Position numbers and translations under genes: made by a program. A stretch of 64,000 nucleotides of DNA, from contig JAFXRI010000024.1 of the NCBI GenBank assembly GCA_017526445.1, positions 11 to 64,010 on the forward strand, read 5' to 3'. Under the pieces are notes generated by a model. The model searched no databases and had not been told where the DNA came from. It worked only from the letters and a program-made list of their open reading frames with translations. Positions 6,665 to 63,944 of the stretch are shown here, piece by piece (within the stretch, counting starts at the first letter, position 1; every line of letters starts with the position of its first letter). The DNA is from Ruminococcus sp. (GTDB lineage: Bacteria > Bacillota > Clostridia > Oscillospirales > Ruminococcaceae).

Positions 6665-7432
6665 TCAGAACTGATAGCTGAGTATATCCCTCTCGGAGGG
6701 AGCTACTTCAAAATGCACCCCGGGGAACTTCTCCGAAAGCACGTTGCGCATATACTCGCAGAAGATCTCCTCCGTGTGGTAATGCCCGGCATCTATGACC
6801 ATCACGCCGGCATTGTAAGCGTCGATGAACACATTGTGCTTAACATCGCCGGTGATAAGGCAGTCAACGTTCTTGGCGATCACGTCTGGAAGTAAGCTTC
6901 CTCCGCTGCCGGAGCACACCGCTGTACGGTTGATCTCTCCGCCCATATTGTTATATCTTACGCAGGTGGTGCCGAGGGCTGCCTGTATGCGTGTGACAAG
7001 CCTTTCCGGTGTCATATTGGCACACTCGCATATATACCCTGTCGGAACGCCGTTCTCGACCTTCAGCGGTTCAGTAGGTATGAGCTGCAGCTTATCACAG
7101 AGGATATCGTTCATCTTAGCGCTGTCAAAGCTGGTGTGAGCACTTATTACGCTGATACCGTCAAAAGCCAGCCTTCCGGCCACAGATCTGAAATCGATCT
7201 GTCTGATCGGATCGAATATCACAGGATGATGCGTGATGATGAGCTGAGCGCCGATCTGTTCCGCATCGCGGACAACATCGCTGGTGGCATCAAGCGCGAT
7301 AAGCGCCGACTTGACTTCGTCGTCTCCCCAGCCGATATTGAGCCCGCTGTTGTCGTAGCTCTCCTGATCCTTGAAAGGCGCGATCTTGTCAATGTAATCG
7401 TAGATGTCTTTTACTGTCGTCATTTGCTTCAC
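6665..7432 (-). CDS. Nif3-like dinuclear metal-centre protein
   Basis: DNSGL, ITHHP, AHTSFD, TGDVKH, DAGHY. Confidence 0.9.
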   Translation of the reverse strand: MKQMTTVKDIYDYIDKIAPFKDQESYDNSGLNIGWGDDEVKSALIALDATSDVVRDAEQIGAQLIITHHPVIFDPIRQIDFRSVAGRLAFDGISVISAHTSFDSAKMNDILCDKLQLIPTEPLKVENGVPTGYICECANMTPERLVTRIQAALGTTCVRYNNMGGEINRTAVCSGSGGSLLPDVIAKNVDCLITGDVKHNVFIDAYNAGVMVIDAGHYHTEEIFCEYMRNVLSEKFPGVHFEVAPSERDILSYQF

Positions 7433-7585
7433 CTCATATATTTATTATCAGACTATCCCTTTGTCCTTCCGCAGGCCGGATGTCTGTTCATCAGCGCTGA
7501 GTCTGCCGGGAAAAGGCCATTCCCGGATAAGACCACACCCTGAAAGCAGTTCTCCCGTACATAGAAAGCCGCAGGGATAGCTGTA

Positions 7586-8665
7586 TCATACTTTTCGCCT
7601 GGTGCCCATAAGGAAGCGGAGCGGCGGTATCCTTATGCATATCTCGCAGGAAACGAACGCTGCTGCATATGCAGGAACTATGGGAGCAAAAAACATTATC
7701 GCCGTACCGCAGCCCGAATACGTCCCGAGAAGATACTGGAACAGGACTATCCACACATAGTGCAGGATATAAAACATAAAAGATCTTTGGGACATATACC
7801 TTGTAAAACTGTTGGACATATTGAAGCGTTCCCCGGCGGTACTGATCAGTCCCAGAACCGTGAACCATTCTGTTCCCCACCTTGCGGCGGTGTTGAGCGT
7901 TCTGACTGCTGCGCTCTGATCCGCCCAAAGGAACAGGTATGTATCCAGTACACCTGCCGCCAGACCGATGCCCAGCAGCAGCCATCTGCATTTTGAGAGC
8001 TTCTCGGTGACTCTGTCATCCGAAAGCAGGTAATAGCCTGCCATAAACATATACAGGTATTCTGCTATACTCTTGCCGCCGATCTGAAGCACCTCGTGCA
8101 GGGGCAGCAGCGGAAGCCCGAGAAGGATCATCCCCCAGACCGGGATCCTGCTCACATCGAAGCGTTTCCCACAGCGGATACCGATCCGCCGTATCACAAT
8201 AAAGATCACCGAGATAACGAACAGGAACAGCAGGAACCAGAAATGTCCCACGGAAAAACCTCCGTCCCCGCCGGTAAGGTCTGTGAACTTCGTAAAGAAC
8301 ACCTTATAATGCGACAGCAGCGAGCCAGTATATCCGCAGTTGAAGCGGTCGGCCAGCCAGCTCATCACAGGCATAACGGTAACTGTGCCGAAGACGAAGG
8401 GTATCAGCAGTCTCCTGACTCTTTCGGCGAGGTACTGCCGCTCGGTCCTTTTGGCGAGGGCGTATCTGCTGCTCATCCCTGCCAGAGCGAACAGAAGCGG
8501 CATCAGAAAAGGGCTCAGGAACACAACGATGCTGATGACGGCACGGTTTCCCTCAAAGAAGATATAATTCGGTTCATCCCAGGTGTTCCAGGCCATTGCG
8601 GCGTGATAAACTATCAGAAGGCTCACGGCGCTCCATCTGAGATTGTCCACATAGTTCCTGCGCAT
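7586..8665 (-). CDS. Acyltransferase family 3 membrane protein (OpgC-like)
   Basis: YVDNLR..IVYH, MPLLF, RRLLIP, HFWFL, FYILH; many TM segments. Confidence 0.85.
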   Translation of the reverse strand: MRRNYVDNLRWSAVSLLIVYHAAMAWNTWDEPNYIFFEGNRAVISIVVFLSPFLMPLLFALAGMSSRYALAKRTERQYLAERVRRLLIPFVFGTVTVMPVMSWLADRFNCGYTGSLLSHYKVFFTKFTDLTGGDGGFSVGHFWFLLFLFVISVIFIVIRRIGIRCGKRFDVSRIPVWGMILLGLPLLPLHEVLQIGGKSIAEYLYMFMAGYYLLSDDRVTEKLSKCRWLLLGIGLAAGVLDTYLFLWADQSAAVRTLNTAARWGTEWFTVLGLISTAGERFNMSNSFTRYMSQRSFMFYILHYVWIVLFQYLLGTYSGCGTAIMFFAPIVPAYAAAFVSCEICIRIPPLRFLMGTRRKV

Positions 8666-8679
8666 ACCGCAGCACCTCT

Positions 8680-9135
8680 TTATGTTTCGTCCGGAGCGGA
8701 CTGCTGCTCATCGTCCTTTTCCTCGCTGTCAGGCTCATCAGTCTTGTTGAGTCCGAAAAGGTGTCTTATCATCTCATACAGCAGCGAGACACCTGCAAAA
8801 GCGCCCATCGTTACGATAAGAGTGGTATTATAGCTCCCGCCCAGCATCTCGAAATTACCGCCGCCGTTGACCGTCCTTGTAAGCAGGAACGCTGCCGGGA
8901 CAGCTCCCAAAGCGCAGCTGAACCACCTCTGGCGCCTGGTGAGCTTCACCAGCGACACACGGTAGAGTATCATCTGCAGGACGACTGCCACAGCCACAGC
9001 AGCGGCATACGATGCCTCGCCGCCGGAATTAAGGCTTATGAGCAGCACAGTTATAAATACTCCCCACACAAAAGAGGCAGTAAGAAGTGCCATACCTATA
9101 CAGAGCAATATTCTGAGTACACGCTTCTTTGACAT
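8680..9135 (-). CDS. Hypothetical membrane protein (~4 TM)
   Basis: Hydrophobic ORF with RBS, acidic C-terminal tail. Confidence 0.7.
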   Translation of the reverse strand: MSKKRVLRILLCIGMALLTASFVWGVFITVLLISLNSGGEASYAAAVAVAVVLQMILYRVSLVKLTRRQRWFSCALGAVPAAFLLTRTVNGGGNFEMLGGSYNTTLIVTMGAFAGVSLLYEMIRHLFGLNKTDEPDSEEKDDEQQSAPDET

Positions 9136-9174
9136 CCTGACTCCTCACTCTCTTCGCCCGGTACGGGCATGTGA

Positions 9175-9858
9175 TCATTCTGTGCTTATCTTTGCTCTTA
9201 GTGCTTCAGCAGCGCTAAGATACTTCTCAGCCTCATCCGACCGGGCTGCATCACGCCCGATGCCTCTGCCCACGGCCTCCAGCCTCATAGCCTGCCGTTC
9301 GAGGTATTCAGCACCCTCACAGGTATCACCGCTGACGAGCCCTCCGTAAAGGTATTCAAGGGAACACTCGCCCTCGGGACCTGCTCCGGAATATACGGCC
9401 TGCATCACCGAATAGACGAACCTGCCCTCCTTGCAGGGCAGCTCGCGGATGACATTAAATCCGCTGGCGTGCAGAAATCTCCGCAGGTGGTCCCACTTGG
9501 TCATAGGCTGCAAAATGAGGTTGACACGGTTTGTCTTTATCCACTCCGCGCGGGCGATTATATCGGCAATGAGCTCACCGCCCATACCTGCGATGACCAC
9601 ATCGGTTATCCCTTCCTCAGGGACGCTGTCCAGCCCGTCGGAGAGCACTGTCTCTATCTTATCCGAGAGACCTGCCCTGGCGATGTTCTCTCTTGCCGAG
9701 GCAAGGGGCATCTCGTTTATATCACAGGCAACAGCGCTGCTGCATATACCCTTTTCTATCAAATACACCGGAAGATACCCGTGGTCTGTTCCCACATCAG
9801 CGGCACGCTCCCCGACGCACAGCTCAGCACAGCACAGCAGCCTGCGGTCATTCAACAT
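9175..9858 (-). CDS. trmK: tRNA (adenine22-N1)-methyltransferase
   Basis: DVGTDHGYLP, SDGL, IAGMGG, LILQP; start re-set to ATG 9858 (GAGG RBS), the longer ORF runs through a repeat. Confidence 0.92.
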   Translation of the reverse strand: MLNDRRLLCCAELCVGERAADVGTDHGYLPVYLIEKGICSSAVACDINEMPLASARENIARAGLSDKIETVLSDGLDSVPEEGITDVVIAGMGGELIADIIARAEWIKTNRVNLILQPMTKWDHLRRFLHASGFNVIRELPCKEGRFVYSVMQAVYSGAGPEGECSLEYLYGGLVSGDTCEGAEYLERQAMRLEAVGRGIGRDAARSDEAEKYLSAAEALRAKISTE

Positions 9859-9929
9859 CCTCACCTCTTTGAAAATTGCCTGTTCTTTTCTCTGTCCGCT
9901 TGGGCCGTGACTGCTCGGAAGTATAAACT

Positions 9930-11792: not shown

Positions 11793-12347
11793 CTATAGAC
11801 GTGCGAACTCAGCTCTGCCTCGCTCAAAAATGTCGCCGCCGAAGCAATCGTTAGCGACTATGAGCGGGAAATCCTCGACATAAAGTCTCTTAACAGACTC
11901 ACAGCCCAGGTCCTCAAAAGCTATGACCTCGCAGCTTTTGATACATCTGCAGGCAAGCGCACCGGCGCCTCCCACGGCGCACAGATATACTGCCTTATTG
12001 CGCACAATAGCATCTCTGACCTCACGGGAGCGTTCGCCCTTGCCGATCATACCGCCCAGCCCCATATCGAGCAGAGCTGGGGCAAAGCGGTCCATCCTGC
12101 CCGAGGTAGTGGGACCGCAGGAGCCGATCGGCTTTCCTTCGGGGGCAGGAGTAGGTCCGGCATAATAGATCACGGCGTCCTTTATATCATACGGGAGCTG
12201 TCCGCCCTCGCTGATGAGCGCCATTATACGCTTATGTGCGGCATCCCTCGAGGTATAAACCGTACCTGAGAGAAGTATTTTCTGACCACAACGCAGCTCC
12301 TCGGCTCTCGCCTTGAGCTGCGCTGCATCGATCTTTAACAGTGACAT
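11793..12347 (-). CDS. Fe-S hydro-lyase (class I fumarate/tartrate hydratase) beta subunit
   Basis: TSRDAAH, YYAGP, GPTTSGRM, MIGKG, EDLGCE. Confidence 0.9.
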   Translation of the reverse strand: MSLLKIDAAQLKARAEELRCGQKILLSGTVYTSRDAAHKRIMALISEGGQLPYDIKDAVIYYAGPTPAPEGKPIGSCGPTTSGRMDRFAPALLDMGLGGMIGKGERSREVRDAIVRNKAVYLCAVGGAGALACRCIKSCEVIAFEDLGCESVKRLYVEDFPLIVANDCFGGDIFERGRAEFARL

Positions 12348-13297
12348 TATTCTTCAACGAGGTCGAGGCCTTCGTCAATGAGGTCTCTCGCCTTATTAGC
12401 GGAGCCAATGGAAGCACCGAACAGATCATTGAGCGAAGAGATGACCTGAGTGATATTCTCGTTGAGATTGGTGTACTCGTTTCTGACAGAATTTCTGAGG
12501 TCAGCGGACTTAGCTTTGATGATACCTGCTTCTGCGTTGGCGTCATCAACAAGCTTCTTAGCCTCAGCCTGGGCATTGGCGGTAGTAGCTGCAGCCTCGC
12601 TCTTTGCGGTGCTGGTAAGTCTCTCAGCCTCGGCATAAGCGGCGCCTCTGACCTGATCGGCCTCAGCCTTAGCGGCAGCGGTCATAGAAGCAGCATTAGC
12701 CTTAGCCTCGTCAAGCGTTCTTGCGGCATCGTTCTGAGCATTGGTAACGGTGCTCTCAGCCTGAGAATTAGCGTCATCGATAATCTGATTAGCCTGAGCC
12801 TCAGCCTCATCAGTCATATTCTGAGCGGCCTTCTTAGCTTCGGAAACAATCTTATTGGCGGTATTCTGAGCCTCGATGAAAACATTACCGAGGTCGAACG
12901 CCTGGGAATTGGTAGCCTGGCCGGCATTCTTCTCTGCCTGCTCCAGCTTTTCCTTCAGATCCTCGATCTCGATCTTCTGATTCTCGATCTCGGAATTCTT
13001 ATCTGCGATCTGCTGCTCATAATCAGCGATCTGCATTTTCATCGTATCGGTGGAAGCCATAAGCTCGGCAACTCTTGTCTTAGCCTCTTCGACCTTCTTT
13101 TCGAGCTCAGCCTTGCCCTCGAAGTTGTCATTGGAAGCGCTTCCCTCTGCTTCATAGCGGGCGATAGCTTCCTCCTGGTCCTTTACCTTGGACTCGAGGT
13201 TATAGATCTTGGAGTTGAGGTCGTCAACGTAAGCAAGCACGTCAGACTTATCAAATCCGCCCATACGGACGGTCCTTAAATAACCGTTATTTCCCAT
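12347..13297 (-). CDS. DivIVA-domain long coiled-coil protein
   Basis: N-terminal GGFDKSDVLAYVDDL; Ala/Glu-rich ~11-residue repeats. Confidence 0.75.
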   Translation of the reverse strand: MGNNGYLRTVRMGGFDKSDVLAYVDDLNSKIYNLESKVKDQEEAIARYEAEGSASNDNFEGKAELEKKVEEAKTRVAELMASTDTMKMQIADYEQQIADKNSEIENQKIEIEDLKEKLEQAEKNAGQATNSQAFDLGNVFIEAQNTANKIVSEAKKAAQNMTDEAEAQANQIIDDANSQAESTVTNAQNDAARTLDEAKANAASMTAAAKAEADQVRGAAYAEAERLTSTAKSEAAATTANAQAEAKKLVDDANAEAGIIKAKSADLRNSVRNEYTNLNENITQVISSLNDLFGASIGSANKARDLIDEGLDLVEE

Positions 13298-13514
13298 AAT
13301 TGATTACCTCCATAAGATAATATCTTCATTTTTTATTATACAATGCTTTTGTGTTTTTTTCAACTGATTTAATCTTATTTTTAAAACTTCATACAAACTG
13401 ACAAAAATCGAATAATCTTTTTGTAGACATTCACTAATCAGCCATTGAAAAACGCTGAAATTTTCAGCAAATATGAAGGGACGAACAAAAGGCTTGTCCG
13501 TCCCATACGAGCGT

Positions 13515-52171: not shown

Positions 52172-53790
52172 ATCATCGCCTCCCCGGTCCTGCAGATCTC
52201 TGTCCAGCCGATGGTGTATGCCGTCATTCCTGTTTTGTAGTCCCTCGCTCTCGACAGAGAGGTCACAGTTACGATCCGTGCAGTCCCTGCGTTGTCGAGC
52301 ATCAGGAAGGGCCCTTTGTATGACAGGAAACTATCCAGTGACGACTGGCGTCCGATACCGTCTATGATCGGCTCGGAGATGTCTCCCATCTGGTCTGCGA
52401 ACACGGTCAGGCTCCCGCTTTCATACTCTGTCTCGTCATATATCGGCGAGGGCTGTCCTGTCTGCGTGCCGATAAGCTGAGTGCCGAGTACTCTGTCTGT
52501 ATCGGACTGTTCGCTGTTGATATCGAAGTACATAGATCCTATGATGCTGAATTTCCGCCTGTGATATGATCTCTCGCCCTCGCGGAGCTTGGAGATCCTT
52601 ACACGGCGGGATGTGACAGTGATGGTGCATACCGCAGGATCTGTCAGCAAACTGGCTGCGATGTAGGTATAGTTTTTTCCGCTTTCAGCGAAGCAGTCAT
52701 CGAGATAGCTCCCGTGACCAAGTATGCCTACAAGCACGGCATTTCCGATACTTTCTGCGTCTGTGAATGTGCCTTCTGCCCGCCAGATGAACAGAGGGAT
52801 CGAAAAGTCGTTCGAGCCCGTGATCCTGATCGTTCTTGCTGTTATATTTTCCTCGGCTGAGACCGAAGCACTCCCCCTGAACGGAGGCGATCCGGGAACG
52901 GCGCTCACCTGCACGCTCTTGTTTTCCTGCGTCATAACAGTGCAGCTCACTGCAAGCGGAGCTGTTCTCCACGGTGTTGGAAAAAGATCGGTGAAGGTAT
53001 ATGAAAAACTCTTGTCGCCTTGCTCATTATTGTACGAGAACCGATACCACTGCATAGCGACGTCTTCGTCCTGCTCATATGTTCCTTCTACTTTCACACC
53101 CTGGTAGTTTGTGCCGTCATATTCCGCGATGATCGTCACCTCGGGATCGCTTCGGCAGTACCAGAAAAACGGTTCGCATTCCAGGTAGTTAGAAATAAGT
53201 CTGAAAGGCGTGCCCGCCGTGACTGTTACGTCGCTTTCGAGCGTTGCTATGCCGGTATTCTTGCTGTAGCTGCTGATGAGCGTCTGGACTCCGCCGATTT
53301 CCAACATACAGCCGCCGATCAGTCTTCTGTTCGGCTCTTCACCGTAATAAACCGCGGGAATGATCGACGTGATGTCCTTCCCGATATTTACCTCTGTCGC
53401 AGCCGTTGCATCCTGCTGGATCCTGCCCGATCCCAGCAGTACATCATACTTTCCGGGGCCTGTGTTCTCGGGATGCTCAACAGACTCGGGGTAGTTCTGG
53501 AAGATCGTGGGGACCTCGGTGTAATCGTGGCCGAGATAGTATTCGAGGCCGGGGACATTGCCTCCGAAGCTCCCATAGAAGTATTCGCCGTTATGCTTGG
53601 CGATCATCTGCCCGCCTCTCGGATAATGCCAGGTGCGATGAGTGCCGGCAGTATTGTCATACTCCGAGAAACTGATCCACGAAAGGCTGTCACAGTTGAC
53701 TTTGAATGAGAGCGTGTGAGTTTCGGTGGCATCCAGCGCCTGACCGTCTATGTTTATATTTGTAATCGTTCTGAGAGTTGATCTGCTCAT
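52168..53790 (-). CDS. Tail protein (distal tail-like, beta-rich)
   Basis: 540-aa ORF directly after the tape measure gene. Confidence 0.55.
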   Translation of the reverse strand: MSRSTLRTITNINIDGQALDATETHTLSFKVNCDSLSWISFSEYDNTAGTHRTWHYPRGGQMIAKHNGEYFYGSFGGNVPGLEYYLGHDYTEVPTIFQNYPESVEHPENTGPGKYDVLLGSGRIQQDATAATEVNIGKDITSIIPAVYYGEEPNRRLIGGCMLEIGGVQTLISSYSKNTGIATLESDVTVTAGTPFRLISNYLECEPFFWYCRSDPEVTIIAEYDGTNYQGVKVEGTYEQDEDVAMQWYRFSYNNEQGDKSFSYTFTDLFPTPWRTAPLAVSCTVMTQENKSVQVSAVPGSPPFRGSASVSAEENITARTIRITGSNDFSIPLFIWRAEGTFTDAESIGNAVLVGILGHGSYLDDCFAESGKNYTYIAASLLTDPAVCTITVTSRRVRISKLREGERSYHRRKFSIIGSMYFDINSEQSDTDRVLGTQLIGTQTGQPSPIYDETEYESGSLTVFADQMGDISEPIIDGIGRQSSLDSFLSYKGPFLMLDNAGTARIVTVTSLSRARDYKTGMTAYTIGWTEICRTGEAMI

Positions 53791-56700
53791 TATTGACCTC
53801 CCGTCTGCCGGTCTCTGTCGGCTCTGTCGATATAATCTGAAAGATACTCGTCGAAAAACTTCCGCGCTTCGGAGTTCATCAGCGTGCGGAGCTGCTCCAC
53901 CGTTCCGCTGTCGGCGGAACCTGATATATAGATGTTCCCGGCGTGATACTCGACGTTTACGTTCTGCTGCTTCGAGGATCCCGCCGAGGGCAGCCGCATC
54001 CCGGAAAGATCGGGCAGGAGGCTTGACAGATCATATCCTTGCAGATCGGGTGCCTTGATATCAAAACCGAACTTCTGTGAAAGCAGGGATGCAAGCTCCA
54101 GCTGCTTGGATTGCAGAGCCGCTGCAGCCTTGTCTATGGCTGCGGTGTCCTGCTCGGTGTGAAAACCTGCTGCAGCTGAAAAGACGTTCACCTGCTTGTT
54201 CTCTGCTCCCTCCAGCTGACGCCTTGCATCCCGGACAGCATTGATACGGTCGAGGAGTGTCTTTGTGTTTGACAGCTCTTCCTCCTGCTGCTTTTTAAGC
54301 CCGCTGTAAACTGTTTCCTCCAGCTTCTGATACTCTGTCAGATACTCGGCTCGGTTCTCGTAGTAGCGCTTGTTTATCTCCTCGAGCCTGCGGTAGTACT
54401 CCTCGGCAGAGATCTCACCCATTTTATAGAGATGCTCAACCTGGGTGATCTCCTGCTCGGCTGACTGTTTCCAGTAATCGGCCGCAGAAGACTGCGCGGT
54501 GCTGGAGACTGTGGAGGAGGCGCCATCGAAGTACTTGCCCGAGAAGATATCAGCGCATATCTGCCTGTATTCTTCTGCCCTGCCCTTGGCATCGCTCCAC
54601 TGTTTATCAGCCTCGTCAAACTGCTTTTTCAGCTCCGGGAACAGCTGTTCATCGCTGAGACCGTACATCGCAGTTCGGCTCCGCTCATAATTGTACTTGT
54701 ATGCGACGTCGTCATAGTCCTGCTTGGCAAGCCGTTCTGCTTCCTCGGCCTCGGTAAGCATCAGCCGCGCCTTTTCCTCGATGAGCTTCCGGATGCTTTC
54801 AGCTTCCAGCTCATAGCCCTCTGAGGTCTGATGTATGCTCCCGGCGAGCTCGGGGTATTTCTCGATGAGATCAAGCATCTGGGCGGTGGAATATTTCGTA
54901 CCGGAGTTCACCTTGCCCAGCTCAGAGATAAGCGATGCCAGCTCGCTTTTATATGACGAGGCGGCAGACTTGGCGTCCTCAAATGCGTCGGAAACTTCTT
55001 CGAGCGCTTCGGAGGTGTCGCCCGCAGCTCCACAAACCGTATCGATTGTGCCGGCAGTATCGGCGAGAGTGTCTGAATAGTTGCTTGTTAATTCCGTAAT
55101 ACTGTCGAGGTCTCCCTGCAATTCTTTAACCTTGTCGGATGCATCATTGAATCGTACAGTTATAGCCGACTCTTGCACTTCTAATTCGCGCAGCTCTTTT
55201 TTTAGTGCTTTGTTGTCAAATGCTATCTCATTTCCGCTCGAATACTGTTCTTGCCATGCTTTATCAATCTCTGAAATGAATTCGTGAACAGATTTCTTTT
55301 CTTCAAGCCCATATTTTTGGGCTATTTCCTTGATTTTATCTTGCTTAGCCTTTGATATGCTTTCAAGCTCAAGTTCCAGCTTGTTTCTATCGAGCTGAGC
55401 TGACGTCAGGTCCTGAGCAATGCTTTCCTGATTTGCCAGTGCCGCCTTTGCAAGGGCAAGCTCTTTGCTCTTTTCAATGCTCTTTTCGATCTCGTCTCGC
55501 TGTGTCCTGAGCTCGGCGGTCTCTTTATTGAAGGCGATGCTCAGGCCGTCAACTCCGCTTTCAAGCTTGCTGACGATCTCGGCCATTTCGGCCTTCTGAT
55601 CCTGCGATTTGCTTTCGACCTCGCTGAGTTCATAGAGCCGCTCGACCAGCTTCTCATATCCGTGGTACTCACCCTCGATGTCCGAGGTCGCTTTCTGCCT
55701 CGCTTCACGGTTCTGGTCTATCTTGTCTTTAAGCTGATCATAGCTCTTTACGGCTTCGTTATTCTGCTCAAGCTCTTTTTCGACCTTGTCAAAGAACTCT
55801 CCGAAGGCGGCATTCGCTTCGTACTGAGCAGCAACAAAGTTCATTATCCCGGTTATAGCAAGAGTCGCTACCGCCGCGATGACTGCATATGGGTTGGCAG
55901 CTGCGGCTGCATTCATGCCGTTCTGAGCAGCTGTGGCCGCTTCGGTGGCGGTTGTGAAATACTTGATCGTTCTGGTGAGAGCGCTTACTATATTTGAGAT
56001 GCTCATTGCTGCCTTATAAGCGATCAAAGCCTCTACGCCTGCCAGTATCGCAGAGCGGTACTCATAGATGAATTTTGCAGCCGAGCTCACGACAGACACA
56101 AACCCCTCGACAGCTGAAGCTGCAGCATCCGCGATCTCCGCAAGGGTGCCGTCTTCTTTGGCCTCCTGTACCAGCTTCAGCAGACGGTCAGCTCCGCCGA
56201 ACAAGCTGTCAAAGCTGTTCACCAGCTCCCCTCCGATTATCATTGATGCGCCCTTGAGCTGCTGCTTGGAGATATCGAGCTTATCATTCATCTCGTTGAG
56301 ATTGTCAAGCGTCTGCTGATCAAAGATTATGCCCATACTCTCGGCCTGATCGCCGTAGTATTTGAGTGCCTCGGCTCCCGCTTTAATGAGAGGGTTAAGA
56401 TCCTGAGCCTGCCGGCCGAAGATCTGCATCGCGTAAGCATCACGCTGTGTCTCGTTCTCCACCTTGCCGAGGGCATCGATAACTTCATAGAATACATCGA
56501 GATTATTTCTCAGCTCACCGCTGCCGGTCCTGATGTTGATGCCAAGAGCTCCGAAGGCCTCTGCAGCATCTCCTGTGCCGTCCTTGGCGCCCTGCATATT
56601 TCTCACAAGACGCTGCAGAGAACTCTGCAGGGTGCTCACATCAACATCTATAAGACTGCTGGCATAGCTGAACTTCTGCAATTCCTCGGTGGAGATGCCT

Positions 56701-57230
56701 GTCACCTTGGAAAGAGTGTTTATATCATCCGCAGTCTTGGCCGAAGTAATCGCTATGCCCCCGAGGGCTGTCACGAGCGCTCCGACGGTCTTAGCAGCAG
56801 TCTTGACCTGCCCGGCTAACTTTTCGATAGAGTCGCTGAGGTCTTTCTTGATCGCATCGCCTGCCTCTTCGACCTGCTTTTTGAAGTTAGAAAGCGTTGT
56901 CTCCGTCCTGGCTATCTCGCGCTGGAGATCCTTGTATCTTGCCTCGGCGCCGTCAACGCCGTTGGCAATATCCGCCTGTGCAGAGGCCTGGGCCGATCTG
57001 AGCATCTCCAGACGCTTCTGCGTTACCTGGATGCCCTCGGACAGCTTCTGAAACTTCTGACTTGTCAGTTCAACATTCTTCGAGTCGAATTTCAAGCCCT
57101 TGTCTATCTCCTTGAGATCTCCGTTGATGCTCTTGGCCTGGGTGTCGATATCTTTCAGGGCCTTTCCGAGGCCTGTGGTGTCGGCTCCGAACTTGACGGT
57201 TATACCCTTGTATGTATTGTTATTCGCCAT
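53790..57230 (-). CDS. Tail tape measure protein
   Basis: KGITVKFGADTT start, Ala-rich helical, 1146 aa. Confidence 0.92.
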   Translation of the reverse strand: MANNNTYKGITVKFGADTTGLGKALKDIDTQAKSINGDLKEIDKGLKFDSKNVELTSQKFQKLSEGIQVTQKRLEMLRSAQASAQADIANGVDGAEARYKDLQREIARTETTLSNFKKQVEEAGDAIKKDLSDSIEKLAGQVKTAAKTVGALVTALGGIAITSAKTADDINTLSKVTGISTEELQKFSYASSLIDVDVSTLQSSLQRLVRNMQGAKDGTGDAAEAFGALGINIRTGSGELRNNLDVFYEVIDALGKVENETQRDAYAMQIFGRQAQDLNPLIKAGAEALKYYGDQAESMGIIFDQQTLDNLNEMNDKLDISKQQLKGASMIIGGELVNSFDSLFGGADRLLKLVQEAKEDGTLAEIADAAASAVEGFVSVVSSAAKFIYEYRSAILAGVEALIAYKAAMSISNIVSALTRTIKYFTTATEAATAAQNGMNAAAAANPYAVIAAVATLAITGIMNFVAAQYEANAAFGEFFDKVEKELEQNNEAVKSYDQLKDKIDQNREARQKATSDIEGEYHGYEKLVERLYELSEVESKSQDQKAEMAEIVSKLESGVDGLSIAFNKETAELRTQRDEIEKSIEKSKELALAKAALANQESIAQDLTSAQLDRNKLELELESISKAKQDKIKEIAQKYGLEEKKSVHEFISEIDKAWQEQYSSGNEIAFDNKALKKELRELEVQESAITVRFNDASDKVKELQGDLDSITELTSNYSDTLADTAGTIDTVCGAAGDTSEALEEVSDAFEDAKSAASSYKSELASLISELGKVNSGTKYSTAQMLDLIEKYPELAGSIHQTSEGYELEAESIRKLIEEKARLMLTEAEEAERLAKQDYDDVAYKYNYERSRTAMYGLSDEQLFPELKKQFDEADKQWSDAKGRAEEYRQICADIFSGKYFDGASSTVSSTAQSSAADYWKQSAEQEITQVEHLYKMGEISAEEYYRRLEEINKRYYENRAEYLTEYQKLEETVYSGLKKQQEEELSNTKTLLDRINAVRDARRQLEGAENKQVNVFSAAAGFHTEQDTAAIDKAAAALQSKQLELASLLSQKFGFDIKAPDLQGYDLSSLLPDLSGMRLPSAGSSKQQNVNVEYHAGNIYISGSADSGTVEQLRTLMNSEARKFFDEYLSDYIDRADRDRQTGGQ

Positions 57231-57359
57231 TGTGTCACCTCGATTTGGATATAATAAAAGCACCTTGCCCGCAGGCTTGGTGCTGTGTGGTCGTATTCAA
57301 TTTTGGATATAAGAAAACCGCCTTGCTGCGGGCGGTTAACTGAATTATTAGCTAAATTA

Positions 57360-57572
57360 TCAGTTAGAAATTGGTTTGATTCCAAATATTTGCTCGGTTT
57401 CAAATCTAATTATATCCGAAGAAGTTGCGTTCGGGTTCGCTTTGATAAATCCAATCACCCTATCGGCATATCCTTCGTCAGATTCAGCCTCCATAATCCC
57501 GCCCTCGACAAAGTCGTCATAAGAATCATCAACAGATTCAAGCAGAGATCTGAGTTCCTCTACCTTTGTCAT
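57360..57572 (-). CDS. Small acidic protein, putative immunity partner
   Basis: 70 aa, 16 D/E vs 6 K/R; ATGA overlap with upstream gene. Confidence 0.6.
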   Translation of the reverse strand: MTKVEELRSLLESVDDSYDDFVEGGIMEAESDEGYADRVIGFIKANPNATSSDIIRFETEQIFGIKPISN

Positions 57573-57973
57573 TTCTTATGCTCCTTTACTCTGTAGATAT
57601 TGTAATCGCCTATCCCCCGGTTTTCAAAATAATAGGTCTTCTTTGTGGTCGTGTATCTGCACAATTCCTTACCTTTATACTTTGAATGCCATGTACGTCC
57701 AACCTGATCGGTAAAATTCTTATACTCCTTCGGCGGCAAATATACATTGGGATAATTGAACGGTACTCCGTTACTATCAAGTCTAACACTTTCCTGCGTA
57801 TTTGTCAAGTCGCCGCCCGTACCCGAACCGCCACTTGTCCACCTTCCGTCAGGTCCTCTTGACTGGTCATCAGAATATTTTACCAAATACTCAAACCTTC
57901 TGCCTTTGATTTTCAAAACCTCTATCTCCCGCCGAATACTCAGCATCACAATCTTTTCTTTCTCGGTCATCAT
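57569..57973 (-). CDS. Putative capsid-loaded effector/toxin
   Basis: N-terminal REIEVLKIKG, YSDDQSRGPDGRWTSGG motif, Gly/Ser linker, basic C-terminal domain; AT-rich. Confidence 0.55.
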   Translation of the reverse strand: MMTEKEKIVMLSIRREIEVLKIKGRRFEYLVKYSDDQSRGPDGRWTSGGSGTGGDLTNTQESVRLDSNGVPFNYPNVYLPPKEYKNFTDQVGRTWHSKYKGKELCRYTTTKKTYYFENRGIGDYNIYRVKEHKK

Positions 57974-58485
57974 AGCGCATCAAAGTCCTCCTGCGTAGCC
58001 GGGCGGGCTTCTTCTTTCTTGTAGCCCTTGATGCGGCACCATTCATCAAATATGCCGATGACCATAGGCAGGGGCATATCGTCAAGGTCGTTCACCGACA
58101 GACCGCAGGCAAGGGTGGAAGCTATCAGGTCCTCAGATGTGAACTCACGCCCGCTGTTGTTTCTTGCGGGCTTATCGTCTGTCCCAAGAGACGAGATGAA
58201 AAGAGCCTCGGCTGTCATTATGGCCTCGGCGAGATCGGGGACATCGAATTGCAGGATCCAGTCCGTAAACGGCAGGAGGCTCCTGTCAGCCGCTCTCGCC
58301 ATAGCCCAGAGCAGGCGCATCCCTATCCCCGCCACCTCCGCGATGCGGTCACTCGGAGAGATGTTCTGCAGGGCCTTGTAATCATCCTTGTATTCGCTGC
58401 GGAATTGCTTTTTATAGTGGATCAGCGCACCCGCACTTGCACTTAGCTGCACGGGTGTTCCGCCGATGATTATTTTCTGTGTCAT
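57970..58485 (-). CDS. Tail assembly chaperone (G and T parts in one frame)
   Basis: YKKQF..LLWAMA..W..QF G-like half; GLSVNDLDD...ATQEDFD T-like half. Confidence 0.75.
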   Translation of the reverse strand: MTQKIIIGGTPVQLSASAGALIHYKKQFRSEYKDDYKALQNISPSDRIAEVAGIGMRLLWAMARAADRSLLPFTDWILQFDVPDLAEAIMTAEALFISSLGTDDKPARNNSGREFTSEDLIASTLACGLSVNDLDDMPLPMVIGIFDEWCRIKGYKKEEARPATQEDFDAL

Positions 58486-58495
58486 ATTATCGTCC

Positions 58496-59035
58496 TCAAT
58501 AGAGCGCACTGAACCAGCTGTTAAAAACAGCTGCATTCGTTTCTTTTGCTATGCTCTTTTTTATGGCCCGTGATCCGAAGATGTCCCGGTTGGCGACAAG
58601 CTCCAGACTCCGTGTCTCGATCCGAGATGAACCGGAGAGTGTCGATGCATCGAATCTCGGCTTTCTGCACACGCAGTCAAGATAACTGTGTCTGATCATG
58701 TCCCCGCTCGTCGTGTGTGTCTCATAGAGCAAGGCAAAATGCACTGCGGGGTGCTCATTCTCGACGAGCACCCCGTTTGCATCTATGGTATAACCCAGCA
58801 CATCAGTGAGAAACGTCACAGGCAGACTTACGATCTCCAGACCGAGCTTGATGCCCTTGTCCATATAAGAGGCAACATACTCGGTCGGCTTGCCGATGAC
58901 ATTCGGGACTATCTTCAATTCCTGCATATTCGGCTCGCGTGTGAGCCTCACGGCTCCCGGCATCGGCACAGGGACCGCGTTAGCCGTCCTCAGACAGTAG
59001 TGGAAATTCTTAAAGCCGCAATGCGCGTTTCCCAT
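58496..59035 (-). CDS. Second, divergent major-tail-protein paralogue
   Basis: GFKNFHY, MPGAV.L, LP..F..DVLG, FALLYE align with 59049-59858. Confidence 0.7.
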   Translation of the reverse strand: MGNAHCGFKNFHYCLRTANAVPVPMPGAVRLTREPNMQELKIVPNVIGKPTEYVASYMDKGIKLGLEIVSLPVTFLTDVLGYTIDANGVLVENEHPAVHFALLYETHTTSGDMIRHSYLDCVCRKPRFDASTLSGSSRIETRSLELVANRDIFGSRAIKKSIAKETNAAVFNSWFSALY

Positions 59036-59048
59036 GATGCTTCACTCC

Positions 59049-59858
59049 TTACTGTGCCGCTGTAGCGGTTATAGTGATGGCTCCGGTGACCTCCGAGATC
59101 GAGATCACGCCGGTGCCGGAATTGTATGCGGTGGATGTCACATCAGTTCCACCCATAGTGACGGTGACCGTACCCATAGTGTAGCCTACCGCCTCGGTGA
59201 GGGTAGCCGTGAAAGCTGCACCCTTTTCGGTCTCCGTGCCGGTGAAGCTGGAAGCTGCGTGTGTGAGAGTCTGTGTAACAGTCACATACTCGGTAGCATC
59301 AGGCGACACAAAGTCATCAGGATCCGGAACCTCGCTGTAAAAACCGTCGTAAACATCCCAGTCCTCATAGCACTTGCCCTTGATGTCATATGTGTCGAGA
59401 CGAGGCATACACTTGATGTTCAGAGTGTCGGTGTCGATCTGGAAGTTCTCGCCCTTGGTGCGCTGAGAGATCGTCGGGCGCTTGGTAAGCTGAGTTCTCC
59501 AGAAGCAGTAACGGCCCTTCTTCTGATCGCCGGTGAACTCGACGAGCATTGCGAACTCTGCCGACTTGGTCTCGGAGTTCTCAATGCCGTTTGTGTCGCC
59601 GAGGATATCCTTCTCAAACTGCTCGGGCAGCAGAGCCACCTCGACAGTGCCCTCGTAGCCGTTGTTAGCGGTCTCGGAAGCGTAGTCCTTGATGTCATCG
59701 GCTGCTATGTTGGTAACGTTCATCTGGCTGTCCAGGTTCAGGGCGATAGCGCCGGGGATGTGGAAAGGAGTGCCGAAGGTATAACCCCCTGCACTGCCCG
59801 CCAGGATCTTGGCGACATACAGCTTCTTGATACCGTATTTAACCTTGTTCTTTCCCAT
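59049..59858 (-). CDS. Major tail protein (phi13-like) with C-terminal Ig-like domain
   Basis: NKVKYGIK, IPGA, ADD, NNGYEG; Thr-rich VTVTMGGTDVT..ITITATA tail. Confidence 0.88.
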   Translation of the reverse strand: MGKNKVKYGIKKLYVAKILAGSAGGYTFGTPFHIPGAIALNLDSQMNVTNIAADDIKDYASETANNGYEGTVEVALLPEQFEKDILGDTNGIENSETKSAEFAMLVEFTGDQKKGRYCFWRTQLTKRPTISQRTKGENFQIDTDTLNIKCMPRLDTYDIKGKCYEDWDVYDGFYSEVPDPDDFVSPDATEYVTVTQTLTHAASSFTGTETEKGAAFTATLTEAVGYTMGTVTVTMGGTDVTSTAYNSGTGVISISEVTGAITITATAAQ

Positions 59859-61228: not shown

Positions 61229-61618
61229 TTATTCAGACTCCAGTGTCAGGCCGTCAAGCGGTATTTCCTTGATCACGGCGCCTGCAGGGCCATAATCTGC
61301 CACGGCCATTATGCTCTGCTCGGTGCTCTCGATCCTGGCAATCATGATCCCATGCACGGGCAGCCATATGACATTGGAGTTTCCTCCTATAAGCTGGACC
61401 GTGATCGACTCTGCACCCGGAGCGTCGAAGTGAAGCATCAGGAAGTTGCCCTCCTGGAGCTCCTCATCTTCCGAAAAGCCTGTGTAATCGGACACATACT
61501 TGAGGGTGCCTGTTACGCCGTCCTCACCGACCTCAATGTCTTCCTGAAGGTCTTCTACTGACTTTCCAAAGTAGTCGCCTGGCGGTATGTCAGCATCTAC
61601 CGACAGGCTTACTGAGGG
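61229..61618 (-). CDS. Probable frameshift-accessed C-terminal extension of the major capsid protein
   Basis: Frame open 61633-61229, overlaps the capsid 3' end in the -1 frame, no ATG/RBS at its 5' end. Confidence 0.6.
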   Translation of the reverse strand, partial: PSVSLSVDADIPPGDYFGKSVEDLQEDIEVGEDGVTGTLKYVSDYTGFSEDEELQEGNFLMLHFDAPGAESITVQLIGGNSNVIWLPVHGIMIARIESTEQSIMAVADYGPAGAVIKEIPLDGLTLESE

Positions 61619-62778
61619 TCCGCCGCTGCCATTTTAAGCACAGCGATCTTCTCAGCATTCTCGACTTTGGAATCCATCTCCATATATGCGCAGACGCCGA
61701 TCGCGTGCTGAGTTGCATACTTCTCACGGAGCACTTGGATCTCGGCATTCTCGGAGATCTTAACGGCAAGGCCAGAGAAATCGCCGTAGAATACAGCTTT
61801 TTTGTTAGCTCCCATATCGGACATATTCTTGGAGATATATACGTCCTTGCCCAGCAGGACATAACCCCACCTTGCGGTATAGTCTCTGTTGAGGAGGTAA
61901 TTGCCCTCACCGTCGCGGAGCTTGCGGATAGCCTTGCGAGTCTTTCTGGACATGATCCATACAGCATTGCCCTGATATACATCGGGGATGGACTCCTGAA
62001 GGTCGATAAGCTCATCAGACTGGAGGTATGTCGCTGCTGTGGCGGTAACTGATGCTGCGAGCTTGGACAGGCCGTCGATCTTGTCTGCGGTGCCGTTGAT
62101 AAGCTCGCCCTCAGCCCATACAGCGAACTTCTCGGCGATCTTGTTGATGACATAGCCGAGAATGTCGAAGTTGGAATTGTTTATAAGGCTCTTGCTGATC
62201 TTGGTCAGCACGCCGGCCAGGAAGCCTGTGAGGCTGATAGACTTGAAGGAACCGGCGGTGGAGGTCAGCTCGGTGAACTCCTCCGAATATGCGACTGTTA
62301 TGTCGCTGGTGTCGCCGTCATAATAGGGAATGGACAGCGTGCCCTTGGCGTTATAGCGTGTAGCCATAGCAAACAGAGGCGAGATCTCAACGACCTTGCC
62401 GATGATCTTGTTGACGATAGAGGAAGGCACCACAGCGCCGTTGTCTCCGAATGTGATGTTGGTGTCTGTGGGCTCACCGTCGCGCATTTCAAGAGCCTTG
62501 CTGCGCAGGTAATTCTCGAAGCCCTTTTCTTCGAGGTTTACCACGTTCTTTTCGGCTGCTGTAGGCTCCAGCAGAGCGTCTCTGCGCTCGATGCTGCGCA
62601 TCTCCTCACTGGCGCTGATAGTAGCATCAAGAGCGGCGATCTCCGCCTTCATCTTCTCGTAGTCTGCGAGCTCTTCGTTGGAGAAGGCTCTGGTTTCCTC
62701 GGCGGCCTTGCCTGCCAGCTTTTCCATAGCATCTACAATGCCGTTTCTCTTCTCGATTAATGCCTTGAGATTGATCAT
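61609..62778 (-). CDS. HK97-fold major capsid protein with N-terminal delta domain
   Basis: Coiled-coil N-terminus, GAVVP, ISKSLI, LLGKDV, YGDFS. Confidence 0.93.
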   Translation of the reverse strand: MINLKALIEKRNGIVDAMEKLAGKAAEETRAFSNEELADYEKMKAEIAALDATISASEEMRSIERRDALLEPTAAEKNVVNLEEKGFENYLRSKALEMRDGEPTDTNITFGDNGAVVPSSIVNKIIGKVVEISPLFAMATRYNAKGTLSIPYYDGDTSDITVAYSEEFTELTSTAGSFKSISLTGFLAGVLTKISKSLINNSNFDILGYVINKIAEKFAVWAEGELINGTADKIDGLSKLAASVTATAATYLQSDELIDLQESIPDVYQGNAVWIMSRKTRKAIRKLRDGEGNYLLNRDYTARWGYVLLGKDVYISKNMSDMGANKKAVFYGDFSGLAVKISENAEIQVLREKYATQHAIGVCAYMEMDSKVENAEKIAVLKMAAADPQ

Positions 62779-62780
62779 TT

Positions 62781-63944
62781 TTACATCTTTCCTTTCAGTT
62801 TTAAAATTTCTATTTCCCGCTGTCTTGTAGCGATCATAGCTTTGATCTTGTCGAGAGCATCACTCTCCGTGTATGTTTTGGTCACACCAGCTGAAGGCTG
62901 TGCAGGAACGGCCACAAAGGACCATTCGTAAGCGTCGGTGGGTTCTTCAAGGATTCCACAGCATATCACGCCGTCATAGATCTTGCCCTTGATGTGCTCG
63001 CAGGGTTTTTTCCACCTGTCAGCACCGCATACCGAGCAGGTGTTTTTGGCTACACAACACCCTACAGAGACCTCCTTTTTGATCCCGCCCTCGATCTCTT
63101 TGATAAGATCGGCGTTGGCTGCGGTTCGTATCATATATGCCTTAGCGATGAGCTCGGCGTACAGCTCGCCGTAGGATGTTCGCTTGCTGCTGTCTATGAT
63201 CGCTTCGGCGTGGAAGATCCTTGCCGTCTGGTTGTCGCTTTTGGCATCGTGGTCGAATATCCCCGTCTTCCCCACATAAAGCTCCGCAAGCTTCGACAAA
63301 GCTCCCAGTGAAAAACGCTCTCCGTCGCGGTCGATCTCGTTATCACACAGCCGGACGGGGAAGACATACACATCCTCTGCTTTCATCCTGCCGCGGGTGA
63401 ACTGGTTGATCTGTTCGAGCTCTTCGGCGCTGACCTCCGGAAGGTCGTCAGCTGTGCGCGTTTCGACATCCGCACCGTCACGAAGCTCTATGGATGTAGC
63501 GTGGTATGCAGGGCGCTTTGTGAGCAGCGAGACTTCCACAAGGTCCAGCTTGGAGATCTCCCGCTTGTATGTGCCGTCACTCGCCTTGGAATAGTCGCCG
63601 AGGGCGTTCTCCATACCGAAGCTCCAGCCTTTCAAACGGCCTGCTCTGGCGGCGGTAACAGTTTCCTCGTCGTCCACCGTAAGCTCGGCCCGCAGACCGA
63701 TATTATCCTCGGTCAGGACGAGATTGCGGCCGTTCTCGCCGATAGTCCGGTTATGGTCGAGCATCAGCTTGACAGCCGGGAGCCTGCTCAGACTGTCGGC
63801 GAAGACGCCCTCCTTGATGCACTCCCGAAAGTCTCCGGGAGCATCCCTGCCCTTTGAACGGGGCAGGAGCTCGGACTAGCGCTCGACAGCATTGACATAG
63901 CCGCTGATCGTGAGCTCGCTGTCCGATCTTATCTCGATCTTCAT
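62781..63944 (-). pseudogene. Prohead protease (two tandem protease domains) interrupted by an in-frame TAG at codon 23
   Basis: RBS AAGGAG + ATG 63944: MKIEIRSD..GYVNAVER*SELL..MLDH..GWSFG..EVSLL..PAY, then a second domain DRDGERF..FDH..EVSVG..EWSFVAVPAQ. Confidence 0.75.

Follow-up and report, generated by a model that had tools for sequence, protein, structure and literature searches.

The toxins and anti-defence effectors that phages deliver have been described mainly as MuF or portal fusions, or through the short T4 and P1 signals that experiments revealed. Among the closest described systems are the MuF polymorphic toxins of temperate phages (Zhang et al, 2012, PMC3482391; Jamet et al, 2017, PMC5576092), with Apk2 and Bxa as examples (PMC11699363). 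Here, we examine a pair of small open reading frames (ORFs) on the minus strand of a 64,000-nucleotide stretch of DNA from Ruminococcus sp. (assembly GCA_017526445.1, contig JAFXRI010000024.1; this whole stretch is the window below): a 134-aa effector ORF (57569-57973) and a 70-aa immunity-like ORF (57360-57572). Like MuF toxins, the system is encoded in head modules, joins a constant carrier to variable C-terminal toxin-like domains, has immunity-like genes downstream and is proposed to be delivered by the capsid. Unlike them, neither the protein nor its phage lineage has MuF, and the proposed carrier is a copy of about 30 residues of a prohead protease tail rather than a structural domain of about 300 residues. 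We lean towards reading the pair as a polymorphic effector-immunity cassette of an HK97-head siphophage, in which the effector would be loaded into the head through its copy of the protease tail. A reading of the DNA made from the letters alone (the sequence-only reading) had proposed such an effector, borrowing the protease's encapsidation signal and paired with an immunity partner; the co-variation, fusions and pairing described below argue for it.

Effectors fused to portal or MuF proteins, and polyvalent proteins, were described by Iyer et al (2017, PMC5512222). That paper places assemblin-like peptidases at the C-termini of polyvalent proteins, records no effectors on HK97-type prohead proteases and, in a text search for linker or glycine, contains no mention of the junction motif described below. 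As in those portal fusions and polyvalent proteins, the effector domain studied here occurs with the same junction on portals, and the junction also stands between polyvalent modules; unlike the portal-fused effectors, the window protein stands free, with a tag and a single effector domain. N-terminal capsid-targeting signals are described for the T4 internal proteins and Alt and for P1 DarB (PMC7411985, PMC9024508). There, as is proposed here, a short N-terminal peptide directs a non-structural protein to the prohead, where the T4 prohead protease then removes the T4 signal. However, T4 signals bind a separate scaffolding core and are not protease-like, whereas the tag here is a recognisable paralogue of the protease tail and varies together with it between phages. 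In HK97, the C-terminal region of the protease gp4 reportedly directs the protease into the prohead and targets the capsid. Here, too, the donor of the tag is an S78 prohead protease, through its C-terminal tail, and the phage has no distinct scaffold gene, but the HK97 work is said to concern the protease itself and engineered fusions. In encapsulins, a short terminal peptide brings cargo to the inside of a shell with the HK97 fold; these shells are not viral and neither cleave nor eject cargo, and the peptides are unrelated in sequence. In the searchable literature, a set that did not include the HK97 protease paper, we found no natural cargo genes that copy a protease tail, and likewise no effectors on HK97-type proteases, no in-frame TGA arrangement of the kind described below and no junction motif. 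Head-delivered MuF toxins, portal and MuF fusions and N-terminal targeting in T4 and P1 are already known; a protease-tail copy used as a tag is undescribed in that literature.

The two ORFs overlap by ATGA (57569-57572), and the 134-aa ORF overlaps the 188-aa ORF upstream of it in the same way (57970-57973). The sequence-only reading had drawn attention to this overlapping pair and to its low GC content, and both hold: GC is 38-45% over 57200-57900 against 52-59% on both flanks. Three parts make up the effector, all on the minus strand. First, an N-terminal tag covers residues 3-33 (57875-57967), with a predicted helix at residues 4-26 and the core RREIEVLKIKG at 57902-57931. Second, a junction motif, K-YSDDQSRGPDGRW, and a Gly/Ser linker occupy residues 32-54 (57812-57880); the junction reads KYSDDQSRGPDGRWTSGG in this ORF. 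Third, residues 60-134 (57572-57796) form the conserved effector domain, modelled as one helix and a three-stranded sheet. A basic C-domain with an acidic partner had also been proposed, and the calculated isoelectric points are 9.6 and 4.1, respectively. Neither ORF matches any family in Pfam, PHROG or NCBIfam; for the 134-aa ORF this holds in Pfam even at E<=1, where no MuF domain (PF04233 or PF06152) was detected, and a profile search of PDB sequences gave no credible match. The window effector is a separate ORF with its own start and is not covalently joined to a virion head protein, whereas homologues are so joined. We also considered the 134-aa ORF as a G/GT frameshift extension of the upstream chaperone-like gene and rejected this, as a same-frame TGA stands two codons upstream of its ATG.

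The tag matches the end of the phage's own protease. Effector residues 13-25, IRREIEVLKIKGR (core 57902-57931), align with the protease end, TRQREIEILKLKGKM (core 62790-62819), within 1 nt of where the sequence-only reading had placed the two copies; the whole protease tail is DKIKAMIATRQREIEILKLKGKM (62784-62852, minus strand). The two copies share eight of 14 residues, four of which are encoded by different codons, and 28/42 nucleotides. Nonsynonymous divergence (dN) is 0.28 and synonymous divergence (dS) 1.8, so the match appears maintained at the protein level, as had been suggested. When the first 33 effector residues were compared by Smith-Waterman with the 422 window ORFs of at least 40 aa, the protease C-terminus scored 54 and the next best ORF 33, and 0/2000 shuffles reached the higher score (z 8.2). 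A hidden Markov model built from five protease tails only was run over the window and all fetched loci, 7070 six-frame ORFs in total, and gave this effector N-terminus as its best non-protease match (E 0.05; next E 2.5). Both tag and tail are predicted to be amphipathic helices.

Nineteen homologues of the 134-aa protein were found, on contigs of syntenic phages, with variable N-termini, a conserved C-domain of about 75 aa and a common junction, Y(S/R/N)xxQxRDxxGR(F/W), followed by a Gly/Ser linker. Only 9, 5 and 9 further loci came from scans of contig collections of viruses, genomes and metagenomes, respectively. The sequence-only reading held that the motif should follow the protease tail in homologues, and it does so in locus L011, in L039 and in the L001 family, weakly in L026, with L007 as an exception to which we return below. 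The L011 tail (ITAAELEQRYNAAVMKSYEASIYDG...) is wholly unlike that of the window; it matches the N-terminus of its own effector (ITLNELKMRYDAALLRSIESSVYDG...) with a score of 90 (next 33; z 17.4), with 15/29 residues identical, nine by different codons, and dS saturated. For the L001 family, tail (...SREIEILKMKGRKNYES...) and effector N-terminus (...KIKEIEILRLKFRY...) score 47 (next 36; z 6.7), and in L001 itself 8/15 tag-tail residues are identical with dS again saturated. In L039, the protease is fused through its 66-aa tail and the junction to a second kind of effector, which has its own acidic ORF behind it; next comes the gene of a standalone effector with the window-type domain (type A), whose first 66 residues copy the L039 tail (score 307, next 38; z 42.8; 174/186 nucleotides identical, dN 0.02, dS 0.27). 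The L026 pair is weak (tail RQAELDLIKLRGV, effector N-terminus IQFDLIKIRHGV; score 28, next-best tail 28; z 2.4), and the tagged effector there carries yet another C-domain. The contigs of P0042 and P0065 are too short to inform co-variation, and the look-ups of P0054, P0103, P0077 and P0148 do not test it because those contigs lack the protease. Judged by these comparisons, in which own-tail matches span three tail families unrelated in sequence, tag and tail are homologous, co-vary and are both under purifying selection.

One alternative, which we consider improbable, is that the tag is an evolutionary relic of a duplicated 3' end of a protease-effector gene, or a recombination arm as in the orphan modules of contact-dependent inhibition (CDI) and Rhs systems, with no role at the capsid. 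The L039 locus, where a fusion precedes a standalone effector and tag DNA is 93.5% identical to the tail, fits this idea, and so does a start-less junction-and-domain cassette in L007 (12550-12954) that resembles an orphan module. However, at 51-67% identity and without long stretches of identical DNA, tag and tail in the window, L001 and L011 are too dissimilar for homologous recombination, and amino acids are kept although dS is saturated (L001, L011) or 1.8 (window). Moreover, the standalone effectors are genes with their own start codons and ribosome-binding sites, and even the young L039 pair has a dN/dS of about 0.08.

Equally doubtful, in our view, is that the tag acts through the protease rather than the capsid, either by pairing with the protease tail helix or as a recognition or cleavage site; the effector would still end up in the head. 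The predicted amphipathic character of both segments would suit such pairing, and because the similarity is to the protease itself, self-association explains it as well as shared capsid binding does. Against this stands the HK97 gp4 C-terminal region, which is said to target the capsid.

Apart from its own tag, the effector domain is found on carriers of the head. The type-A domain is fused to portal C-termini in at least nine proteins (P0020-22, P0024-25, P0048, P0059, P0158, P0090), and portal fusions also occur at loci L018, L023, L024 and L026. It is fused to the C-termini of HK97-type (S78) proteases in P0023, P0035 and P0039, stands at the C-terminus of an XkdF-type protease in P0069 and lies behind a NUDIX domain in P0061. 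The seam in every one of these fusions is the same junction motif. The C-terminal parts of portal and protease lie inside the phage head, and their fusions, compared at the sequence level, independently support head association of the effector domain. As protease-effector fusions elsewhere run in the order tail, junction, cargo, the window effector is colinear with their C-terminal part. Three protease lineages have a TGA stop at the end of the protease ORF, beyond which junction and effector continue in frame (L011 18769-18771; L019 9956-9958; and, as the third, L020 4033-4035 with L021, L022, L034, L036 and L037), and in L011 and L019 the in-frame effector has no start codon of its own. Recoding of TGA was rejected for these loci, where TGA ends about half of the long ORFs. 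Because TGA is an ordinary stop there, the loci are candidates for low-level read-through, which would yield a few protease-effector fusions per head.

The junction is shared well beyond one kind of cargo. KYSxDQPRDxxGRW with its Gly linker precedes at least five unrelated C-domain types in the fetched loci, and the small ORF that follows differs in kind from one type to the next; no Pfam match was found for any of these domains. Within the single phage L007, one tag-and-junction combination is joined to two or more distinct C-domains. The description of the effector as swappable in the sequence-only reading is thus borne out, and a constant N-terminal part with variable C-terminal domains is what defines polymorphic toxins in the sense of Zhang et al (2012). 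The L007 cassette at 12550-12954, mentioned above, has a frame that opens at the junction without a start codon, carries a further C-domain and is followed by a 60-aa ORF, in the manner of an orphan toxin-immunity cassette of the CDI/Rhs kind. A junction of the form KYSDDQPRDDHGRW(T/S)xGGGG also recurs 4-9 times between modules (GNAT, ART-PolyVal and others) in proteins of 800-3800 aa (P0055, P0063, P0072, P0074, P0076, P0082, P0086, P0097). By their sequence, they belong to the polyvalent proteins as Iyer et al (2017, PMC5512222) use the term, and the repeated junction in them is possibly a shared cleavage or linker site. A second prophage of the same metagenome-assembled genome (MAG; locus L045, contig C30, with features at 7256-7924, 9132-9914 and 11827-13398) encodes two effectors with the junction and with a common N-terminal peptide, (I/L)KITNRRI, one of them also with an HSHP...S..D motif like that of JAB/MPN enzymes, and a portal with a C-terminal effector domain of a second type (type B); the contig ends before the protease gene.

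The 70-aa partner travels with the domain. A homologue lies directly downstream of every type-A domain copy, be it free, portal-fused or protease-linked, and the 22 distinct homologues share the consensus ...SDSYxDFVxG...TSDI..F.TE.ILGIKP. Type-B domains instead precede another acidic ORF family of 76-96 aa, so the downstream immunity-like gene changes with the type of C-domain, as in polymorphic toxins. Modelling the toxin with its partner had been suggested as a check. Co-folding of residues 60-134 with the 70-aa protein scored 0.84, and the best of 3 controls 0.00; the mark used was reached by 58/80 solved complexes and 2/110 mismatched pairs. At least 98% of contacts agreed across three runs, with a partner predicted local distance difference test score (pLDDT) of at least 90, and the predicted contacts include residues 113 and 115, on the strand that bears the invariant Glu117. 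The models thus support binding of the effector domain to the 70-aa protein. The partner is encoded downstream of the effector and has no family match in Pfam, PHROG or NCBIfam, a lack of match that is still compatible with DNA binding.

Considering the domain itself, 186 cluster representatives were found at E<=1e-3. Across 86 diverse members, Glu117 is the sole invariant residue, and Asp66, Gly69, Glu83, Tyr84, Tyr114, Phe116, Tyr124 and Asn125 are almost invariant; at position 119, most members have His but the window effector has Arg. The model of the whole protein has a pLDDT of 65 and that of the domain alone 91.9, and both models were searched with Foldseek, VIA-align wide and Atlas. 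Chains of RelE, ParE, HigB, YafQ and YoeB gave VIA Z scores of 2.5-3.2 and, together with CdiA-CT, make up about one-third of the weak structural list; Atlas neighbours at a template modelling score of about 0.5 are RelE/ParE toxins and portal proteins. No Pfam match was found for the effector, PBECR families included. The domain resembles RelE/ParE (BECR) toxins in its size, its helix on a small antiparallel sheet, its basic charge and its acidic inhibitor, the binding of which is here predicted. Unlike them, it reaches a Z of at most 3.2 and a Foldseek E of no better than 0.19 (E>=0.19) in these comparisons, has three strands instead of the usual four or more, and departs from their conserved pattern with an invariant Glu in FEN(H/R)G. 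Because Roadblock/LC7 and RelE/ParE-type chains share the top ranks, we leave the fold unnamed; our best guess from the models, held weakly, is a small RNase-like toxin.

The weak RelE/ParE-like neighbours, the small basic toxin and the acidic partner would also suit an ordinary moron, that is, a toxin-antitoxin or abortive-infection pair that serves the lysogen or prophage stability and is never packaged, and the low-GC island with a terminator-like hairpin and the intact cassette beside a broken protease gene point the same way. We nevertheless regard this as very unlikely, as many phages carry the same domain at the C-terminus of portal or protease, tag and tail co-vary, the toxin gene comes first, the partner has no DNA-binding family match in Pfam and the genes always lie within late structural operons. 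In type II toxin-antitoxin pairs, the antitoxin is usually encoded upstream and has a DNA-binding domain; the partner here is downstream.

The sequence-only reading had called the system MuF-independent. This holds for the present lineage, where no MuF gene was found among the head modules of L001 or L007 (portal to protease), but not in general, as other phages place the effector family behind MuF: in three of the four look-ups (P0054, P0103, P0077, P0148) it lies directly behind a MuF gene. Across relatives, the cassette flanks the chaperone gene on one side or the other, or it follows the gene for the small terminase, the protease (directly) or MuF. At L049, an effector N-terminus (MTKTQLMLLGTRIRLT...) and the N-terminus of an adjacent 225-aa coiled-coil protein (the two lie at 6817-7494 and 7504-7875) match with a score of 52 (next 26), and this shared N-terminus may be a cargo tag of a different kind.

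Under the cassette reading that we favour, the C-terminal part of a protease-effector fusion would have become a separate gene and been inserted as a low-GC island beside the tail chaperone gene. Its N-terminal helix would mimic the C-terminal tail of the protease, and since the tag mimics the tail, the effector would be co-assembled in the procapsid at low copy; the major capsid protein is the presumed binding partner of both tail and tag. Junction and linker are the probable site at which the prohead protease frees the domain. The freed basic domain of about 75 aa would then exit with the DNA and act in the infected cell, perhaps as a small RelE/BECR-like RNase with an essential Glu. The acidic 70-aa protein would cover the Glu-bearing face of the sheet and prevent harm by the domain to the producing cell, and possibly also to the lysogen.

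Several observations weigh against this reading. The two tagged effectors of L007 have no significant match to their own tail (z 0.1 and 1.6) and are closer to tails of the L018/L026 type, an exception to strict co-variation. Some tag-tail identity is recent duplication, since the L039 tag is a recent duplicate (174/186 nucleotides). In HK97 the signal sits at the C-terminus of the protease, but the tag here stands at the N-terminus of a free protein. Effector N-terminal extensions in MuF phages have no similarity to MuF C-termini, and the extension in the MuF-bearing L049 instead matches the N-terminus of the adjacent protein. Structure searches returned no significant match (best Foldseek E 0.06, best VIA Z 4.0). 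Finally, the system may be inactive in this prophage because its protease carries a nonsense codon.

A broader proposal, which we put forward tentatively as a possibility, is that HK97-type phages have a general, portable address for head cargo, namely any protein bearing the tail of its own prohead protease. Attachment would follow three routes: fusion, TGA read-through, which would set the copy number, and a tail copy on a free protein. All would share the KYSxDQPRDxxGRW-Gly junction as the site of release, so that one rule for loading, cutting and injecting would serve diverse phages.

The genomic setting is that of a siphophage late operon, which occupies the minus strand over 50-64 kb of the window according to gene order and Pfam and PHROG matches. 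The host assembly is a MAG, 78% complete, and the tagged toxin-like protein and its putative inhibitor are encoded by a probably defective prophage of this gut Clostridia-type bacterium. The prohead protease gene (62781-63944) encodes an HK97/S78 domain (PF04586 E 1.1e-15; TIGR01543 E 4.9e-9, 36.5 bits, under the curated cut-off of 59) and a second domain of about 200 aa between S78 and the tail (62781-63440, minus strand; phrog_16951 E 3.8e-93), which is Cys-rich (CxxC...C.H) and absent from the short proteases of the related phages L011, L018 and L026. A single in-frame TAG (63876-63878) follows ...GYVNAVER. As this codon stands where the viral contig L016 (95.6% identical) has TGG, the prophage copy is probably defective; L001 has AAG. 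The TAG resembles a nonsense mutation, unless it is an assembly variant. Next in the operon are the major capsid protein gene (61609-62778; HK97 fold with an N-terminal delta-like region), head-tail genes, the tail tube gene (59049-59858; 269 aa, phrog_88, the major tail protein family) and an adjoining shorter tube-like paralogue (58496-59035; 179 aa, phrog_88); this phrog_88 gene pair is kept in L001 and L007.

The 188-aa ORF upstream of the cassette (57970-58536) is a probable tail assembly chaperone by position alone. Its residues 18-128 match phrog_709 and its residues 139-187 phrog_3033, both unannotated, and it has homologues of 169-172 aa in L001 and L007; its two PHROG parts may be the G and T of a tail chaperone fused in one frame. 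The tape measure gene (53790-57263), homologues of which carry PF10145, is the downstream neighbour. The sequence-only reading had put the cassette between tail chaperone and tape measure, which is right as to place, while the chaperone label stands on position. A tail-associated cargo or assembly factor, which that place might suggest, is scarcely credible, as the effector has no visible similarity to tail proteins and the varied positions among relatives do not tie the cassette to tail genes. A terminator-like hairpin with a T-run lies 3' of the cassette, upstream of the tape measure gene (57316-57337, minus strand); it is the first of two tandem hairpin-plus-T-run elements (57243-57337, minus strand) between the cassette and the tape measure start, and the one returned by the terminator scan (57337-57316).

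Beside fusion to MuF or portal proteins and the T4/P1 signals, our finding suggests a third natural route, legible in sequence, in which cargo copies the encapsidation tail of the prohead protease. Because tags co-vary across unrelated tail sequences, the hypothesis is directly testable by tag swaps. If true, it would provide a rule for spotting virion-carried effectors in the many HK97-like phages without MuF, and a phage-specific tag, 15-60 residues long, with which foreign proteins could be loaded into such capsids. It would also define a large, uncharacterised effector-immunity family, with its 186 cluster representatives, together with a widespread junction motif and a way to test what that motif does in polyvalent proteins.

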